DNA of 22,230 nt. It comes from a virus. Lineage: Duplodnaviria; Heunggongvirae; Uroviricota; Caudoviricetes. Position numbers and translations under genes: made by a program. Below, piece by piece: positions 3,841 to 13,014 of this stretch. The notes beneath the pieces are model-generated. The model saw only the letters and a list, made by a program, of their open reading frames with translations, searched no databases and had not been told where the DNA came from. Position 1 is the first letter of the stretch. Every line of letters starts with the position of its first letter. The stretch spans positions 1-22,230 of the IMG/VR virus record IMGVR_UViG_3300029567_000333; one strand, 5' to 3'.

Positions 3841-4196
3841 AAGGTGGCCTGTGCAATATTACCATTGATATCTGTAACGCGGATTGTGCCGCGAGTTGTG
3901 CGTGTATTCTTGTCAAAGAAAACTGATGCCAGAGCATCCTCAACGACGGGTAATTTGAGTGCTTCAGCCTGCATTTTCTGAGCAATAAAACCAGGAGATG
4001 GTCGCCTGCCAAGAACTTCTGCCTTCCATGGGATCCCAAGTGTATTGTCGTAATAACACTCTCCTGAAAACACCAGGCACGCACTGGCGACATCCTGAGC
4101 AACAGAATATGATTCTTCTGCGATCGCCAGATTGCCATTTCCGTCAAGCGTCAAGTCCCACGTAGAAGTGTCCAGTTGCATAGTTCTGTATGTCAT
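3837..4196 (-). CDS. small baseplate protein (gpW/gp25-like by position)
   Basis: 119 aa, translationally coupled on both sides (ATGA overlaps). Sits between the spike-like and J-like genes. Confidence 0.45.
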   Translation of the reverse strand: MTYRTMQLDTSTWDLTLDGNGNLAIAEESYSVAQDVASACLVFSGECYYDNTLGIPWKAEVLGRRPSPGFIAQKMQAEALKLPVVEDALASVFFDKNTRTTRGTIRVTDINGNIAQATL

Positions 4197-6884: not shown

Positions 6885-6906
6885 AAACCCAGTCGAAGCT
6901 GGGTTT
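6885..6906 (-). terminator. rho-independent terminator, minus strand
   Basis: AAACCCAG / CTGGGTTT stem with a 6-nt loop. On the minus strand it is followed by TTTTTGTTT. Lies just 3' of the 73-aa gene. Confidence 0.6.
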
Positions 6907-6916
6907 AGTGAATTGG

Positions 6917-7138
6917 CTAGTTATCAAAAAGTCCGTACGTTTCTTCTTCTTCAGGAGTAAGGGGAAGAATCTCAATTCTATCTATAGATACCTTTTCAAT
7001 GTACCCATGAGGTCTGCTTAAAATTAAAGCTCTCTCATGCCACAAAACACCAAGAATGTGATATCTCCCAGCATCGCCTTTTACCCTGGCTCTTCCTTTG
7101 ATTCTTGGCGGCATAATGCCATATTTTTTCTTTGCCAT
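6917..7138 (-). CDS. hypothetical small basic protein (73 aa)
   Basis: Start ATG shares a base with the upstream TAA (TAATG), suggesting translational coupling. No family recognised. Confidence 0.45.
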   Translation of the reverse strand: MAKKKYGIMPPRIKGRARVKGDAGRYHILGVLWHERALILSRPHGYIEKVSIDRIEILPLTPEEEETYGLFDN

Positions 7139-7866
7139 TATGCAACATTACTCCCATGAACCAGGTGTTGTAGTGCTTTAACACCTTCCGCATTGTAGCG
7201 GAATGCTTCCACCTGTTTGCTGGAATGCGCAGATTTATCCAGGAAGAACTTCCCGTACTGCTCAGTTTTGAGGTTGTTTGCGTTAGCAATGCGACCAATC
7301 TTGTTGGCCGTTACTCCAAGCTGCTCTGCAACCTCCCCTGCTGAGTAGTAATGCTCTTCTATTGCTGGAAGAGGTATTGCATTAAAACCAACGATCGGGT
7401 TGATTATGCTTGCTGCCGCAGTCTGCTTTGCTTCCGGCGCAAGATTTGGCATCAAATCGAACAGATTGGTAACAGCTTCAACCGTCATTTTCAATGTTCG
7501 CGCCTGGCGATACTCAACAAGTCCACTAGACGATTTACCGCTTTTAATGTGCGCTTCTTGCATACTTTCAAGTTGGTCTACAAGTGAGCGGCGAACAGCT
7601 TTAGATTCACGAGCAGCCACTCGAAGGGCTTGCTTAATTGACATAACAACTTTTTCAGAAGTTGTCTTGTTTGATTTTTGAACTACGAAAATTTCGTAGT
7701 GCTCACCTTCAAGTTCATCCTTAATGCGTGCAATAAAGTCGTTATTGCGGACTTCTTTTTCCCCGCACTGTCTACGAGCATGATTGACCATCTCTAACAG
7801 GTACTGGCTATCAATGGTTTTATCCGTGACAACGGATCCGATGTTTGCTACATTCTTAAAAGTCAT
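7138..7866 (-). CDS. putative phage regulatory protein (possibly antirepressor-like)
   Basis: 242 aa from the internal ATG at 7866, which has an AAGGA Shine-Dalgarno 7 nt upstream. The longer ORF-track N-terminus would run through a terminator hairpin. Only a weak resemblance to the N-terminal region of phage Rha/antirepressor-type regulators (TIDSQYLLEMVNHARRQCGEKEVRNNDFIARIKDEL); the call rests mainly on position directly downstream of ant. Confidence 0.4.
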   Translation of the reverse strand: MTFKNVANIGSVVTDKTIDSQYLLEMVNHARRQCGEKEVRNNDFIARIKDELEGEHYEIFVVQKSNKTTSEKVVMSIKQALRVAARESKAVRRSLVDQLESMQEAHIKSGKSSSGLVEYRQARTLKMTVEAVTNLFDLMPNLAPEAKQTAAASIINPIVGFNAIPLPAIEEHYYSAGEVAEQLGVTANKIGRIANANNLKTEQYGKFFLDKSAHSSKQVEAFRYNAEGVKALQHLVHGSNVA

Positions 7867-7904
7867 TAGGCATTCCTTATGTGGTAGTAAGGGTGTGACA
7901 TAGG

Positions 7905-7933
7905 CCGCCAGCTGCACACTGGCGGTTTTTTTT
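7905..7933 (+). terminator. rho-independent terminator oriented on the plus strand
   Basis: CCGCCAG-ctgcaca-CTGGCGG (7-bp stem, 7-nt loop) followed by eight T (7926-7933). On the minus strand the hairpin is followed by CCUAUG, not a U-run. Sits between ant and the next minus-strand gene. Confidence 0.6.
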
Positions 7934-7950
7934 CACCACCAGATGCGTCA

Positions 7951-8967
7951 TTAATACAGATGAACAGAAGGCGGTAATTCTTTATTCTTAAGCCTTATCC
8001 ATGCAGAAAGATTTGTTGGTCCGTCTGGCTCATTGATATCAACATCTCGTGTGTGGTTGATTAAAACGTCTCTCGCCGTTCCGATAACATACGAGAACTC
8101 ATGACCGTAGTCGTAGCATCTGCCGGAATAGTTCGATTGAATTTGTTTTAATGCCGGATACAGTTCGCGGAATAATGCCTGTGAGCGGTTGGCATAATCC
8201 CATAACCATACAAGGCTGTTTGCTTCTTTTGCGGAAAGCTCGTTGGTGCTCTTCTCTTGTTTGCTAATGAACTCACCTTCAAGTGGAACTCGAGCTGCAA
8301 GTGACAGTGCTTCGGTAAACTGCTCCTCACTGATTTCTTTGTACGAACATCCAAAATGGGATTTCAGTGACGACCACATGGTGATCATCGCCTTCGCCTG
8401 TTTTTCTTTTGGCAGAGACTGACCGCGACTCATGACAAGTTGTTTAATGGCTTCCTGCTGTTCAGTGGTGATTTTGCCCGGCAACGCCTTTTTAGCTTTG
8501 CGCGGGTTAACCACATGGCCTTTAGTCCAGTAGTCATGCAGCACAGTAAAGCATTCTTCCTGGTACTGAATCAGTTTATCGCGGATGTCAGCACGAACTT
8601 TCTCAGGGTTGATGCTGAACAGCCATCCATTTAACTTCTTCAAAGGAAGGCAGAGTAGCTTACGAAGCTTCCCATCAGCAGCAACCATATTCATATGAAT
8701 ACAGTTGAACTTATCTAGTTGTTTCATAAGTTTTTGTTGCTGAGTACCCCAGCTCATTCCGAGGTTTTCAACGATTGGCTTCATCGCAACATATGCAACT
8801 CCTGCAGCCATGGCGGTGATAATTTGCTGACCGTTGAAGGGTACGTAAGAGGTGTTCACTGCTTCTAAAATTGCTATACTATTCATATCAGTTTTCTCGT
8901 AGTTAACTGGTAATTTAGAAGCCTCAATGGTTGCAGCCATTGGGGCTTCGCTGTTTTTAGCGACCAT
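7951..8967 (-). CDS. ant: antirepressor (Ant-like)
   Basis: N-terminal region ([37 protein letters not shown]...[16 protein letters not shown]) has the shape of phage antirepressor N-terminal domains. Lies directly 3' of an Arc-like gene and divergent from an Mnt-like gene, as in P22 immI. ATG at 8967 has a GAGGTGG Shine-Dalgarno and overlaps the arc-like stop by 11 nt. A start at 8886 is also possible. Confidence 0.65.
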
Positions 8968-9130
8968 TCGCCACCTCTTCCCTAACACCTTTTGCCAGCA
9001 AACGAACAATTGCAGAGTTCAGAGATATACAGTCCATTTCCGCCAGGCGGCGAAGGTCTTCATTCAGCCGTGATGGAAGGCGAAGGTTGAGTTTGATATT
9101 TTTGCGCTCAGTGAAAAGTGTATCTTGCAT
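8957..9130 (-). CDS. arc: Arc-like ribbon-helix-helix repressor (57 aa, missed by the ORF track)
   Basis: Translation [57 protein letters not shown] has the beta-strand plus two helices layout of the Arc/MetJ family. AAGGAG Shine-Dalgarno 9 nt before the ATG at 9130. Confidence 0.7.
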
Positions 9131-9236
9131 TATCTAATCTCCTTTATTTGGTGCCAAAGTGACGCCATGAAGGCCATAATGCCACCATTGAAATCGTATG
9201 GCAATATGGCACCATGGTTTTTTTGAGAGATTTGCA
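9131..9236. promoter_or_regulatory. divergent promoter/operator region between the arc-ant and mnt-like genes
   Basis: Minus strand: TTGCCA (9204-9199), 17-nt spacer, CATTAT (9181-9176). Plus strand: CATAAT at 9175-9180, so the two -10 hexamers overlap. Dense GCCAT/ATGGC and GGTGCCA/TGGCACC inverted motifs are candidate operator half-sites. Confidence 0.45.
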
Positions 9237-9557
9237 ATGGCCGAAAAACAAGTAAAAGACTACGACAAGTTCAACCTCCGTTTTCCTGACGGAATGCGAG
9301 ATGCTATAGCTGAACGAGCTAAACGTAACGGCAGATCAATGAACTCAGAGATTGTGCAGATACTGGAAGATGCCTTGAATGCAGAAAATACTCTTGGGGA
9401 AATAGCAGACAAAATCAACAGCGTCTCGGTTCCGCTAAATGTTGATGCGCTAGTTCAACTTCAAGCCCAGGTTATCGCCATGCAAAAAGAAATACAGGAA
9501 AAGTTCAGAGAGCAAAACGAAAAGTTAAGAGAACTGCTAAACAAAAAACCCACCTGA
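9237..9557 (+). CDS. mnt: Mnt-like ribbon-helix-helix repressor
   Basis: FNLRFPDGMRDAIAERAKRNGRSMNSEIVQILEDAL closely matches the Mnt/Arc DNA-binding region as I recall it (FNFRMP...EANGRSMNSELLQIVQDAL in P22 Mnt). C-terminal half is heptad-like and coiled-coil-prone. Start taken at the ATG at 9237 (GAGAGA Shine-Dalgarno); the longer N-terminus from 9198 has none. Confidence 0.85.
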   Translation: MAEKQVKDYDKFNLRFPDGMRDAIAERAKRNGRSMNSEIVQILEDALNAENTLGEIADKINSVSVPLNVDALVQLQAQVIAMQKEIQEKFREQNEKLRELLNKKPT

Positions 9558-9570
9558 CGGTGGGTTTTTC
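9543..9570. terminator. bidirectional rho-independent terminator between convergent genes
   Basis: A-run (9543-9548), CCCACC-tgac-GGTGGG stem-loop, then TTTTT (9565-9569). The mnt-like stop TGA lies in the loop, and the convergent minus-strand gene ends at 9571. Confidence 0.75.
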
Positions 9571-10563
9571 TTATTCTTTATCTTTTAAGTCGATGGTTCT
9601 TTGTCCAATAACCTTTTCATCTATGTATTTCTCATACTCTTCTCGAGTATCAGAAACCATTGCAATACCAGTAACCTTACCTATTTGGGTTCTAAGAGCT
9701 TTAACTCCAACCTCTGATAAAAACTGGTGTATTTTATCGTTTTTGCTGCCTTTCTCTTCTTTTGACGTTTTTGCTAAATTAAATACCTTTCCTTCACTTC
9801 TGGCTAATGGGTAGTAAATGTGATCTATCGTAAGATATTTAAACGCCCACGGTCGCCCTCTAACTGGTTTGTCTATACCATACAGACGATACCAATGCTC
9901 ATAAAGTTCAGGGGTGAACTCTCTTTCATACTCACGAGCCTCTTCAGCAACATATCGCTTATATGCTTGAATTACTTCTTCTTTTGTTCTGTCATACCCT
10001 GCCAAAGCATAAACAAGCCCCTGAATTCCCGCCTTGGCTGATGCATCAATAATTATCCTGGCTTGCTTAGCAATCCCTTCCTGACTAGAAAGCAACTTAC
10101 CTTCAGCTTTAGCGTTAGAGATTGCTCGACATAAATCAATTAAGATTGTTACATCGTAGCCATGTATTACAGGGTTAGCTGGTGTGTTCGTGCCCACCTG
10201 TTTGTATTGAAAAATAAGAGGATTTTCAAGTTTTGCCCTTAATTCATGCCCGATATACTGAGAAATAGTTTTCCCCTGAATAAACTTTGGCAACCTGCTG
10301 CCACCTTCGCCAAGACCAATCGCTTCTCCCATGCCTCTCTGGCTAATAACGGCAGTTTTGTTATCATCATTTAACACATAGCACTCAACATCAATCCCGA
10401 ATTCATGCTGGAACGATCCCTTATGCGTAGCAATTAATGGTTTATCCTTCCATCTTGCAGCCGCTGCTTTCTTTGCTATTTCAGAACGCTGCTCTTTAGT
10501 CAGCGACTTTGCGCGAGCGATTCCGCCCTTAGCTTTCCCTTCACCACTTTTCTTTTCAGTCAT
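9571..10563 (-). CDS. hypothetical protein, possibly P63C-domain-like; function unknown
   Basis: 330 aa from the ATG at 10563, which has an AAGGTG Shine-Dalgarno 8 nt upstream. Basic N-terminus (KKSGEGKAKGGIARAKSLTKEQRSEIAKKAAAARWK). The gene is visibly more AT-rich than the structural genes. The P63C resemblance is from memory and unverified. Confidence 0.45.
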   Translation of the reverse strand: MTEKKSGEGKAKGGIARAKSLTKEQRSEIAKKAAAARWKDKPLIATHKGSFQHEFGIDVECYVLNDDNKTAVISQRGMGEAIGLGEGGSRLPKFIQGKTISQYIGHELRAKLENPLIFQYKQVGTNTPANPVIHGYDVTILIDLCRAISNAKAEGKLLSSQEGIAKQARIIIDASAKAGIQGLVYALAGYDRTKEEVIQAYKRYVAEEAREYEREFTPELYEHWYRLYGIDKPVRGRPWAFKYLTIDHIYYPLARSEGKVFNLAKTSKEEKGSKNDKIHQFLSEVGVKALRTQIGKVTGIAMVSDTREEYEKYIDEKVIGQRTIDLKDKE

Positions 10564-10564
10564 A

Positions 10565-10654
10565 ATGCAAGCACCTTTGCTGTGATATATGCTTGCATTA
10601 TATGCACTGTACCCACATACAAGCAAGCATAAAACAAAAGCAAAATGCTTGCAT
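10565..10654. promoter_or_regulatory. array of four 10-bp near-palindromes ATGC(W)(W)GCAT with a putative promoter
   Basis: ATGCAAGCAc at 10565-10574, ATGCTTGCAT at 10589-10598, aaGCAAGCAT at 10621-10630, ATGCTTGCAT at 10645-10654, giving two units of inverted half-sites 24 bp apart. On the minus strand a perfect TATAAT (10602-10597) with a weak TTGCTT -35 lies among them, and the repeats overlap the -35, the transcription start and the Shine-Dalgarno. Confidence 0.55.
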
Positions 10655-10771
10655 TGCAACCGCACTACTCCAACTACACAGTATCATCTGGTATCCTGCG
10701 TAAAACCGAGTGTTGCGTGCTTTTGCTTAAGTTAACGGATACAAACATAGGAAACGTTACAAGGGGAAAGA

Positions 10772-11230
10772 ATGAAATCCAGATTTTTCACAATAGCAAT
10801 ATTTTCTTCCGTTCTTCTATCACTCGCAGCTTATGCTGCATCCGACAAAGATAAGGAAAAAATGATGTCTTTAATAAAAGATGCTTCTCCTTATGTTGCA
10901 GGCATGGGCAAAAGCATTGATGAAGTTTGTCAGGATATGGCTAACGACATGGTAAAAAAGTATGGAAATCAACTTAGTGCTATTGGCAAGTCACCGTCAG
11001 ATATACGAGATTCATCGTATGGTATATGCTTTGACGCTGCATCTTCAGCATCATTATCGCAATCCATAGAAGAAGTAAGCATGTGGAAAAATGCAGCAAT
11101 GCAAAACATTAACGCCACATTCCGAGGCGAGAATGAGCAATCTCCCGCGCGAAAATTTCTCGTTGAGACAATTGATCACTCTGAGAAAATGGCAAAAACA
11201 ATTGCATTCATGCGGGAAATTAGTCAATAG
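10772..11230 (+). CDS. small secreted (periplasmic) protein of unknown function
   Basis: N-terminal signal peptide (MKSR, hydrophobic core FFTIAIFSSVLLSLAA, AYA-AS cleavage motif) with no lipobox cysteine. Two Cys in the mature part. AAGGGGA Shine-Dalgarno. AT-rich. Converges on the tape measure gene with an 8-nt gap. Confidence 0.65.
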   Translation: MKSRFFTIAIFSSVLLSLAAYAASDKDKEKMMSLIKDASPYVAGMGKSIDEVCQDMANDMVKKYGNQLSAIGKSPSDIRDSSYGICFDAASSASLSQSIEEVSMWKNAAMQNINATFRGENEQSPARKFLVETIDHSEKMAKTIAFMREISQ

Positions 11231-11238
11231 CAAATCTG

Positions 11239-13014
11239 CTAAGGCACTGCACTTGAAAATGCCTGATTTACTGATGATCTGCGATTCAACTCCTTAAATC
11301 CTTCGGTTAGTTTTGAGGATTGATCCGTTTTGGCAATTACCTTTACCTCTCCTATGTGCTGGCTGTTGTAATTGTTAACAACGCTTTGGGTATAGGATTG
11401 ATTTGCAGATCCATTAGCCAATCTTTGCTGAGTTTGGTAGTAAGCGGCATTGCTATTTTTCGTTGGGTTACCATAATCAAGACCCCGCTTCCAATCTGGA
11501 TAACCTTCATGCCTAGCCATATAGGCGCTAAGTTTTGCCATAACCTCTGGATCTGAGAGGTTTAGCTTATCATTGGCACCAACGCCCATAGACTTAGAAA
11601 CCTGGTCAATATACGCCTTTGTGTTGTTTTCTGAGGATGGTGCCCACTTGCTTATTATTCCTTGCAACGTATCAAGCTTATCTCTTTTGTAGTATAGAGT
11701 CAGTTGATTCCTGGCGGCCTCCCAACCCTCTTCTGGGTCGAAGTATTGAGCAAATCCGTCTTTGTCTCTTCTTCTGTTTCCAGTAGCTTTAAGATTTAAT
11801 GGGTTATTGTTTCTGTCAGGCCTGTTGACACCATTTTTGTTAGGAGGAATCTCTTTATTTGGATCGTCATAATCCAGCCCAATGAGCCTTTCAAGCCAAT
11901 GCTGCTGAAATGCGAATGGCCGCATCTCATCAGGAACATCTTTATACTGGTCTTGTACCATCTGCCCAAAAATACCAACAGCACCGATTAATCCCAGCTT
12001 GCTTCCTAACCCCTTGCCGCTAAGAAGAGCCATGGCAGCAAGAATGCCCAATGCGTTTCCAGCGCCACCAACGGCTTTAACAAAACCATCAATACCTGTA
12101 CTCAGGTTCCTGAAGAACCCAACAATGTCACCCTTGTTGTTTTTCAGCCACTCTAAAAACTCCTGTTCAGCTTTAAGCACTTCAGGGCCAAATGTAGCCA
12201 TTAATTCTTGTTTAACCTGAGCAAATTGCGAGTCAAGGGCTTTAGTCGTAGCAAGAATGTTGCGCTGTGCTTCTTCCTGCTCTTTGGTCATCTGCCATCG
12301 TTTTTCTTCCTCAGATACCATCTGCACAGCTTTTCCGCTTTTAATATCCCCGGCAAGATTAGGGTCATAACCAAAAGCAGAAAGCACTTGCATTAACTGT
12401 TTCTCGTTATGGTTCTTCCCATATTTCTGAAATTCCGCCAGAGCATCTTCTGATTTACCTCCAAGCTTACTAATATCAATGCCTGTTCTCGCTCCAGTTG
12501 TTAGTAAATTCTGAGCCTCCGGTGTAAGTCCGCCGAAAATTGTTGGGTCTTCTATATTGGCAAGCGCCATCCTGGCGCTCATCTGTGCCCCAAGGAACGC
12601 GCCGCCGTTCTGACCAATTCGGGAGAATCCATACTGAGTACCAAGAACGTTACTGGCGCTTGTTCCAAGCATTCTCCCCATATTACTGGCTCTTACAATT
12701 GACTCCGAAGTACTTTCAAATGCACGATGAATGCCAATGGCTACGGCAGTCAACACACCGCCAACAGCCACAAAGCGTGTCGAAAGCCCCAAAAAACCAT
12801 TAAATGAAGCAGTCAACCCTTTCATTGCAACAGCAGCTTTGTCGGTCTCCTTAGCCGTTTTGGACATCGAGGAGGTTGTTGACCTTTCTATCGCAGATGA
12901 AGATCTCTCTATTTCGTTTTTAAGGTCTTGTGCTTCCTGCTTTACTTTCCGTTTTCCATTCAGGAATTCATCGGCCTTAATTGTGACCTTGTAGGCCAAC
13001 TCATTGATAATCAT
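11239..13014 (-). CDS. tail tape measure protein
   Basis: 591 aa, directly downstream of the chaperone pair. Gly/Ala-rich hydrophobic segments (AVGGVLTAVAIGI, GGAGNALGILAAMALLSGKGLGSKLGLIGAVGIFG) and a charged coiled-coil-like stretch. C-terminal region (NNNPLNLKATG...YFDPEEGWEAARNQL...) looks like a separate globular domain of unknown identity. Confidence 0.7.
   Translation of the reverse strand: MIINELAYKVTIKADEFLNGKRKVKQEAQDLKNEIERSSSAIERSTTSSMSKTAKETDKAAVAMKGLTASFNGFLGLSTRFVAVGGVLTAVAIGIHRAFESTSESIVRASNMGRMLGTSASNVLGTQYGFSRIGQNGGAFLGAQMSARMALANIEDPTIFGGLTPEAQNLLTTGARTGIDISKLGGKSEDALAEFQKYGKNHNEKQLMQVLSAFGYDPNLAGDIKSGKAVQMVSEEEKRWQMTKEQEEAQRNILATTKALDSQFAQVKQELMATFGPEVLKAEQEFLEWLKNNKGDIVGFFRNLSTGIDGFVKAVGGAGNALGILAAMALLSGKGLGSKLGLIGAVGIFGQMVQDQYKDVPDEMRPFAFQQHWLERLIGLDYDDPNKEIPPNKNGVNRPDRNNNPLNLKATGNRRRDKDGFAQYFDPEEGWEAARNQLTLYYKRDKLDTLQGIISKWAPSSENNTKAYIDQVSKSMGVGANDKLNLSDPEVMAKLSAYMARHEGYPDWKRGLDYGNPTKNSNAAYYQTQQRLANGSANQSYTQSVVNNYNSQHIGEVKVIAKTDQSSKLTEGFKELNRRSSVNQAFSSAVP

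Follow-up and report, generated by a model that had tools for sequence, protein, structure and literature searches.

The closest described relative of the locus reported here is the immI region of phage P22 (mnt - Pmnt/Pant - arc - sar - ant). In the P22 record, the antisense RNA sar lies in the 68-nt spacer between arc and ant, with its promoter within the first ant codons, and its function has been summarised (PMC12197685). Arc and Mnt of P22 have different operator sequences. In P22-like phages, among them epsilon34, HK620 and CUS-3, this region is known as the ant moron, a variable and independently expressed cargo of the late operon that often consists of mnt, arc, sar and ant and shows high genetic flux and many alleles (Villafane et al. 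2008, PMC2629481); it is also described in PMC8022706. We analyzed a related locus in a 22,230-nt stretch of DNA from a virus of the Caudoviricetes (IMG/VR record IMGVR_UViG_3300029567_000333, positions 1 to 22,230), referred to below as the window.

A P22 immI-type cassette in a tail operon

Positions 7951-9569 of the window very probably hold a complete P22 immI-type secondary immunity cassette, or ant moron, placed in the late (tail) operon of a prophage; we put the probability of this reading at about 0.85. It is a genuine but ordinary copy of the "second immunity" switch of P22, with two repressors, an antisense RNA and an antirepressor (Table 1). The evidence consists of homologies, gene geometry, the conservation of RNA structure and the conservation and co-variation of short sequence boxes. 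A preliminary description of this DNA had named an antirepressor gene and two genes for ribbon-helix-helix (RHH) proteins, and all three are present in the list of open reading frames (ORFs) and in the sequence. The product of 7951-8967 carries antirepressor domains and both small proteins score above the gathering score of Pfam Arc. Neither of the two outcomes that would have refuted the preliminary interpretation was obtained, and that interpretation is supported in its main lines. The mnt / arc-ant layout, the gene order, the strands and the orientation relative to the late operon are those annotated for P22 immI, arc and ant being co-oriented in both.

The cassette also differs from that of P22 in several respects. 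The host phage of the P22 region is short-tailed, while the genes around the present cassette are of the contractile-tail type, and neither sieA nor orf59a is found here. The ant moron of P22-like phages sits between gene 16 and the tailspike gene, whereas here the cassette lies between a tape-measure-like gene and a baseplate hub gene. It shares with those morons a variable, multi-allelic behaviour. The same allele occurs with 94% to 97% identity in lambdoid phages that convert their hosts to Shiga toxin (Stx) production (2851, YYZ-2008, 1717 and Stx2a_WGPS8). Nucleotide identity to the window is 90-97% over 7951-8625 and 8869-9564 and the intergenic region is essentially identical, but the N-terminal segment of Ant (8626-8868) is divergent and the cassette is located between lambda L-like and K-like tail genes. 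The RefSeq names in these phages are anti-repressor Ant, Arc-like repressor and Arc family protein.

The allele is uncharacterised and new, and it extends a textbook system, with product names already annotated, to a further phage type. The documented range of the ant moron is widened from P22-like phages to a contractile-tail prophage, with little that is new in kind. Beyond the existing annotation, this work adds a corrected ant start, the sar-like RNA, which current annotation lacks, the cassette borders and a candidate layout of three operator boxes. The silence of a prophage, or of its neighbours, depends on antirepressor cassettes. A correct gene model of this one has practical value, because the allele is also carried by Shiga-toxin phages, whose toxin production is driven by induction.

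Table 1. Features of the immI-type cassette and of the surrounding cargo block (positions in the window)
Feature	Position	Strand	Evidence or remark
Variable cargo block	6906-11249		between baseplate hub and tape-measure-like genes
orf73	6917-7138		PHROG 4977; cargo block
Antirepressor-like gene, 242 aa	7138-7866	minus	PHROG 1726 'anti-repressor' (6e-100); no Pfam match
Site of possible antisense RNA opposite the 242-aa gene start	7826-7936	plus	promoter-like GTGACA-17-TACATT with TG, 7826-7854; terminator hairpin 7902-7928 and T-run
ant, antirepressor, 311 aa from ATG 8886	7951-8886	minus	Pfam, P22 alignment, PHROG
Psar-like promoter (predicted), within first ant codons	8852-8880	plus	extended -10 TGcTATACT at 8872-8880; weak -35
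sar-like antisense RNA (predicted), ~70 nt	~8886-8957	plus	Rfam, terminator scan, folding, covariation
arc-like RHH repressor gene, 57 aa	8957-9130	minus	Pfam Arc, family profile
Divergent regulatory region	9131-9236		promoter scan, repeats, motif enrichment
Candidate operator boxes (TGSCACCA, 8 bp)	a 9149-9156 (inverted); b 9180-9187; c 9207-9214		conserved positions
Pmnt-like promoter (predicted)	-35 9151-9156; -10 9175-9180	plus	GTGCCA-18-CATAAT; 9/12 match
Pant-like promoter (predicted)	-35 9204-9199; -10 9181-9176	minus	TTGCCA-17-CATTAT, TG before -10; 9/12 match
mnt-like RHH repressor gene, 106 aa, long C-terminal helix	9237-9557	plus	Pfam Arc, PDB, AlphaFold2 (AF2), Foldseek
Two-way terminator-like hairpin with A-run and T-run flanks	9544-9569		terminator scan
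P63C-domain gene	9571-10566/10665		convergent with mnt-like gene; cargo block
orf152	10772-11230	plus	no family; cargo block

The arc-ant spacer encodes a predicted sar-like RNA

The 70-nt spacer between arc and ant encodes a predicted sar-like antisense RNA, which the preliminary description had overlooked. This RNA is complementary to the ribosome-binding site of ant and to the 3' end of arc. The Rfam model of sar (RF00262) gave a full-length match on the plus strand at 8886-8952, with 28.6 bits and an E-value of 6e-4 on 281 nt. On the same strand, a terminator scan picked out positions 8918-8949 as a terminator-like hairpin with a T-run after it, and the RNA 8886-8960 folds with a minimum free energy of -31.4 kcal/mol (z -6.1). 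Spacers were also compared among 80 Ant loci from IMG/VR plus P22, which comprise about eight spacer sequence types. The 5' hairpin of sar was misaligned by MAFFT and each spacer type was therefore folded individually. All eight divergent types give the same two hairpins when folded separately, the 5' hairpin exposing a pyrimidine-rich anti-Shine-Dalgarno loop and the 3' hairpin forming the terminator. In the 3' stem, 6 base pairs show compensatory changes. The window also has a GAAGCC...GGCTTC hairpin in common with P22.

The P22 region has the same two-hairpin RNA in a spacer of nearly the same length (68-70 nt, 68 in P22) and a near-identical -10 element of Psar. The Psar-like element of the window is one base off the annotated P22 Psar, and its extended -10 (TGCTATACT / TGCTAAACT) is retained even where the ant coding sequence diverges. 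This site was not called by a generic promoter scan. The Rfam score counts against the sar assignment, being below the RF00262 gathering score of 43; a scan of the whole window at gathering thresholds gave no match, and the sar match surfaces at E-value thresholds only. The RF00262 model is narrow and scores P22's own sar at 97.8 bits. By its predicted architecture the spacer RNA is sar-like, though the formal Rfam threshold is missed.

Ant and its start codon

The ant frame is open on the minus strand over 7951-9009 and contains in-frame ATGs at 8967 and 8886. Its product has the Pfam domains P22_AR_N (1.5e-44) and P22_AR_C (7.5e-30) and matches PHROG 245 'anti-repressor Ant' (2e-96). An alignment that covers the whole of P22 Ant gives 68% identity. 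Translation from ATG 8967 would yield an Ant of 338 aa. The start is most likely ATG 8886, and four observations place it there. First, M1 of P22 Ant aligns to ATG 8886, which is residue 28 of the longer form; the first 29 nt of ant are the same as in P22 in this alignment. Second, the extension is not conserved, an upstream in-frame start codon being absent in 41 of 82 related loci. Third, ATG 8967 arises from the Asn-Gly codons AAT-GGT at the C-terminus of the Arc-like protein; relatives whose Arc-like protein ends in NAQ have no such codon, and in these the called ant gene follows arc after 70 nt. Finally, both spacer substitutions within the cassette type of the window are non-synonymous in the extension frame and neutral for the structure of the antisense RNA, one turning a G-U into an A-U pair of the sar stem and the other falling in a loop. 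The short form is also the one annotated by PGAP in E. coli E423.

The alternative is that ant starts at ATG 8967 and is coupled to arc by an 11-nt overlap, the spacer being coding and sar-type control absent. Several features speak for it and against a start at 8886. The in-frame ATG 8967 follows a good match to a Shine-Dalgarno sequence (GAGGTG), the Shine-Dalgarno upstream of ATG 8886 is weak (GAGA), and RefSeq annotates the overlapping start in some Stx-phage records. A gene caller also picks an overlapping start in relatives with antirepressors of the Bro-N type, and the extension frame remains open in a divergent relative (CACSKA010000002.1, discussed below). The P22 alignment, the loci without the upstream codon, the origin of ATG 8967 in the Arc-like C-terminus, the PGAP annotation and the spacer substitutions all oppose this alternative, as does the sar-type fold retained across 8 sequence types, and we regard it as unlikely. 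The 11-nt overlap of the preliminary description is thus correct as geometry (ATG 8967 against an arc stop at 8957-8959), but ATG 8967 is probably a spurious start and the idea of translational coupling drawn from the overlap is probably wrong. A minor long isoform of Ant may still be made from ATG 8967, since this codon has the better Shine-Dalgarno and is used in some RefSeq records. In one locus of the same cassette type (L074, position 6001) ATA replaces the ATG of ant; either ant is knocked out there or another start is used.

Arc-like and Mnt-like repressors

Both RHH genes were confirmed. The Arc-like protein scores 22.1 bits with Pfam Arc (PF03869; cut-off 20.4) and is 30% identical to P22 Arc. 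The top PDB matches of its family profile are chains of the Arc repressor (E-value 4.7e-4), and hhalign relates its family to that of the Mnt-like RHH protein with a probability of 95.6%. The AF2 model has helices at residues 20-31 and 34-56. Fold searches with this model of the 57-aa monomer were uninformative; they gave no match, which counts against the assignment.

The Mnt-like protein matches Pfam Arc with an E-value of 1.4e-20, and its residues 7-48 are 50% identical to residues 3-44 of P22 Mnt over 42 residues. Its C-terminal half is longer than that of P22 Mnt and has no similarity to it. Sequence matches in PDB are Arc, AmrZ and Mnt. The AF2 model (mean pLDDT, the predicted confidence score, 80) contains helices at 20-31, 35-62 and 69-102, and its top Foldseek matches are AmrZ and Arc, with TM-scores of 0.72-0.83 on the target. 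The beta-strand/helix/helix DNA-binding domain is shared with Arc, Mnt and AmrZ. Neither AF2 monomer model shows structure in the N-terminal strand; this is expected, since such a strand finds its partner only on dimerisation. The view that the two RHH proteins are distant from their P22 counterparts does not hold for the DNA-binding domain of the Mnt-like protein, of which only the C-terminal tail is unrelated. Both repressors of the window carry outward-facing strand residues of the pattern K-x-N-x-R, so that the reading-strand residues are K-N-R here, compared to Q-N-R in Arc and H-N-R in Mnt. The mnt-like gene starts at ATG 9237. An alternative ATG at 9198 would give 119 aa, but relatives differ in the length of the T-run at 9218-9224, which puts this ATG out of frame in them.

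Some names in source databases, such as 'HicB family antitoxin' and 'plasmid stability protein', would make the two RHH genes components of toxin-antitoxin or partition systems, and weak Pfam HicB matches do exist. These score 18.7 and 17.3 bits, under the Pfam cut-off of 21, and no toxin or ParA-type gene adjoins the two genes, whose neighbours are each other and ant. Such a role is extremely improbable.

Divergent promoters and candidate operators

The mnt-like and arc-like genes diverge from an intergenic region of 106 bp (Table 1) that is almost invariant within the cassette type of the window (11 loci). Overlapping -10 hexamers of two divergent promoters had been noted in this region, and a consensus scan also finds them, as CATAAT on the plus and CATTAT on the minus strand. 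The two predicted promoters share the -10 region here, whereas in P22 the -10 of one overlaps the -35 of the other. The -35 of the predicted Pant aligns with that of P22 Pant, and relatives have TTGACA-16-TAAATT at the equivalent place. Three points weigh against the promoter assignments: matches of 9/12 are weak, the region contains 4 promoter-like sites compared to 2.9 +/- 1.6 in shuffled sequences, and no convincing -10/-35 pair of the Pmnt type was found in the closest relatives. The rightward, Pmnt-like promoter is less secure than the leftward one as a prediction. Among the loci L070-L083, natural variants include A9178G, which weakens both predicted -10 elements, and C9186T, which falls in box b, described below.

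The region is also packed with inverted GCCAT/ATGGC motifs, as earlier reported: 5 were counted in 9131-9241 compared to 0.35 expected, and this is the densest such stretch of the window. The exact 12-mer TGGCAWTATGGC occurs in the window as one inverted pair (9173-9184 and 9199-9210) and nowhere else. When copies with one mismatch are included there are five in the window, compared to 0.22 expected. The additional copies at 1890-1901, 4126-4137 and 7110-7121 were considered as distant operators and rejected, since a prophage that lacks the cassette has the very same copy at 4126 and no counterpart exists for the others; they are probably due to coding or chance. The P22 operators Oarc and Omnt were not found here when up to 3 mismatches were allowed. 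Species-representative genomes were scanned for the exact pattern of the operator region, and no match resulted.

The best operator candidates are three boxes of the form TGSCACCA, which bracket and overlap both predicted promoters. In related cassettes the three boxes hold their positions, box a being inverted beside the Shine-Dalgarno of arc and boxes b and c direct, with spacings of 27-31 bp and 26-27 bp. They change in concert between cassette types. In the type of the window the boxes read TGGCACCA (a), TGCCACCA (b) and TGGCACCA (c). Relatives with the same Arc-like type and another N-terminal arm of the Mnt-like protein have TGGCCCCA, TAACACCA and TGGCCCCA, and a type in which the Mnt-like protein is nearly identical (strand K-V-R) and Arc is unrelated has TGCCATTA, TGCCATCA and TGCCATCA. 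The box pattern was chosen post hoc from the sequences, which counts against it, and it serves as a lead and not as a test. An assignment of boxes to repressors from allele linkage among types A, A', B, C and D was dropped, linkage being confounded by physical proximity. The natural series of co-varying repressor and operator alleles may be used for studies of RHH recognition.

Since both repressors carry the same K-x-N-x-R strand, they may read the same type of TGSCACCA box. This idea, together with that of a portable regulatory half standing beside a second antirepressor with a possible antisense RNA of its own, is tentative and we rate it as rather doubtful. If true, maintenance by the Mnt-like and early shut-off by the Arc-like repressor would be discriminated by the spacing and orientation of the boxes and by the geometry of the oligomers, in contrast to P22 with its two distinct operator sequences. 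In the second part of the idea, the regulatory half (mnt, promoters, arc and sar) would behave as a portable controller that is recombined onto antirepressors of the P22 type and the Bro-N type. It would be inserted into the tail clusters of podoviruses, siphoviruses and myoviruses, in each case in the direction of the late operon. Several loci (L089, L094/L095, L098/L099, L100 and L102) have the regulatory half joined to Bro-N or Bro-N plus P22_AR_C antirepressors in place of the P22_AR_N type. In the Salmonella loci L094/L095 it occupies the tape-measure/hub junction as in the window, the tail being of the same family, and a pRha-domain gene then follows.

Proposed mechanism

The steps of the mechanism are inferred by homology with P22, and so are the use of the promoters, the contacts of the proteins with DNA, their oligomeric state and what Ant acts on. 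In the lysogen, the divergently transcribed Mnt-like repressor would keep the arc-ant promoter closed; its oligomerisation is presumably driven by the long C-terminal helix. Upon infection the arc-ant promoter would fire briefly and produce a burst of Arc and Ant, and the Arc-like repressor would then close this promoter. The sar-like RNA of about 70 nt would start at the ATG of ant, end in the arc-ant spacer and pair across the ribosome-binding site of ant, blocking translation of the residual ant message. Ant would bind and inactivate the primary prophage repressor of the CI/C2 type. A point against this last step is that the primary repressor, the presumed target of Ant, is outside the window.

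Ant could instead act mainly in trans, on the repressors of other resident or superinfecting lambdoid prophages. The cassette is common, at 94-98% identity, to phages as unrelated as Stx siphoviruses, P22-like podoviruses and this myovirus-type prophage, which are unlikely to share one primary repressor, and a second antirepressor gene, similar to Ant of P1, adjoins it. We consider a mainly trans-acting Ant possible, at fairly low odds, and no observation in the window contradicts it directly; it is not exclusive of the mechanism above, and it would alter the target of Ant but not the nature of the module. Another possibility is that the module is a decaying, non-functional remnant, as for some ant morons of P22-like phages, of which degraded forms have been described (PMC2629481); the L074 locus with ATA in place of the ant ATG would fit such decay. 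In the window all three ORFs are full length compared to P22, the regulatory region is nearly invariant over 11 loci and more than a thousand genomes retain the cassette at 94-98% identity, which makes decay very unlikely.

A second antirepressor-like gene

An antirepressor-like gene encoding 242 aa lies directly downstream of ant. Residues 14-106 of its product are 59-63% identical to Ant1/2 of P1 and P7, whose immI consists of the c4 antisense RNA and ant1/ant2. The likeness to P1/P7 immI is confined to this neighbouring gene, and no c4-like RNA or icd was found here. A promoter-like site and a terminator hairpin with a T-run lie on the plus strand opposite the start of the gene (Table 1). 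They suggest a possible sar-style antisense RNA of about 75 nt across its Shine-Dalgarno and ATG. No Rfam family matches this predicted RNA. The same layout, with another hairpin sequence, is present in a 60%-identical homologue (Klebsiella phage klb_E) and is less clear in an Stx2a phage.

Borders, distribution and genomic context

The borders of the cassette are discrete, at 7951/7960 (the ant stop) and 9564/9568 (the mnt terminator), and similarity to the cassettes of Stx phages and E. coli stops at 9564-9568. The right-hand border is formed by the hairpin at 9544-9569, which is predicted to terminate both the mnt-like gene and the convergent P63C gene. Its 5' arm consists of the codons of NKKPT, the conserved C-terminus of the Mnt-like protein, so that the motif is probably conserved on account of the terminator and the recombination border and not for a function in the protein. 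The NKKPT end (9541-9569 in the window) is kept in many Mnt-like homologues with otherwise unrelated tails; P22 Mnt ends in KKTT.

The flanking genes are of the contractile-tail type, as the preliminary description had stated, and include a DUF3383 sheath, an E217 gp32-like tube, a Pam3 gp18 plug and Baseplate_J. This setting is not a special feature of the cassette, which is of a known mobile kind, present among the tail genes of many enterobacterial prophages, and is also found in tail clusters of the lambda and P22 types. The 80 best related viral loci have P22-like (62), lambda-like (12) and myovirus-like (6) tail clusters; whichever of these tail types is considered, arc-ant runs in the direction of the late genes and mnt against it. 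The cassette was found in 1166 of 5426 complete E. coli genomes, and the same myovirus-type prophage occupies the argW/intS site in about twenty E. coli genomes.

Sister prophages show that the block between the baseplate hub and tape-measure-like genes is variable cargo, with orf73, the P63C-domain gene and orf152 as its further members in the window. The cassette is absent from the prophage of strain SC406. In that of strain WS4437A-1 the ant N-terminus and the arc allele are different ones, and in that of strain E423 the allele is the one of the window but lies next to other cargo. The cargo of SC406 consists of the P63C gene and orf152 only, and E423 has a Panacea-domain gene in place of the P63C gene. 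PADLOC gave no match for any of the cargo, and PADLOC and NCBIfam returned nothing useful for the cassette or its neighbours.

A protein-based scan of species-representative genomes detected a single locus with this Arc-like type (L089, CACSKA010000002.1). It is labelled Chryseobacterium sp. 18061, yet it has 45.5% GC, typical enterobacterial prophage genes and 66-72% nucleotide identity to the window; its GC content and gene complement suggest that the assembly is contaminated or mislabelled.

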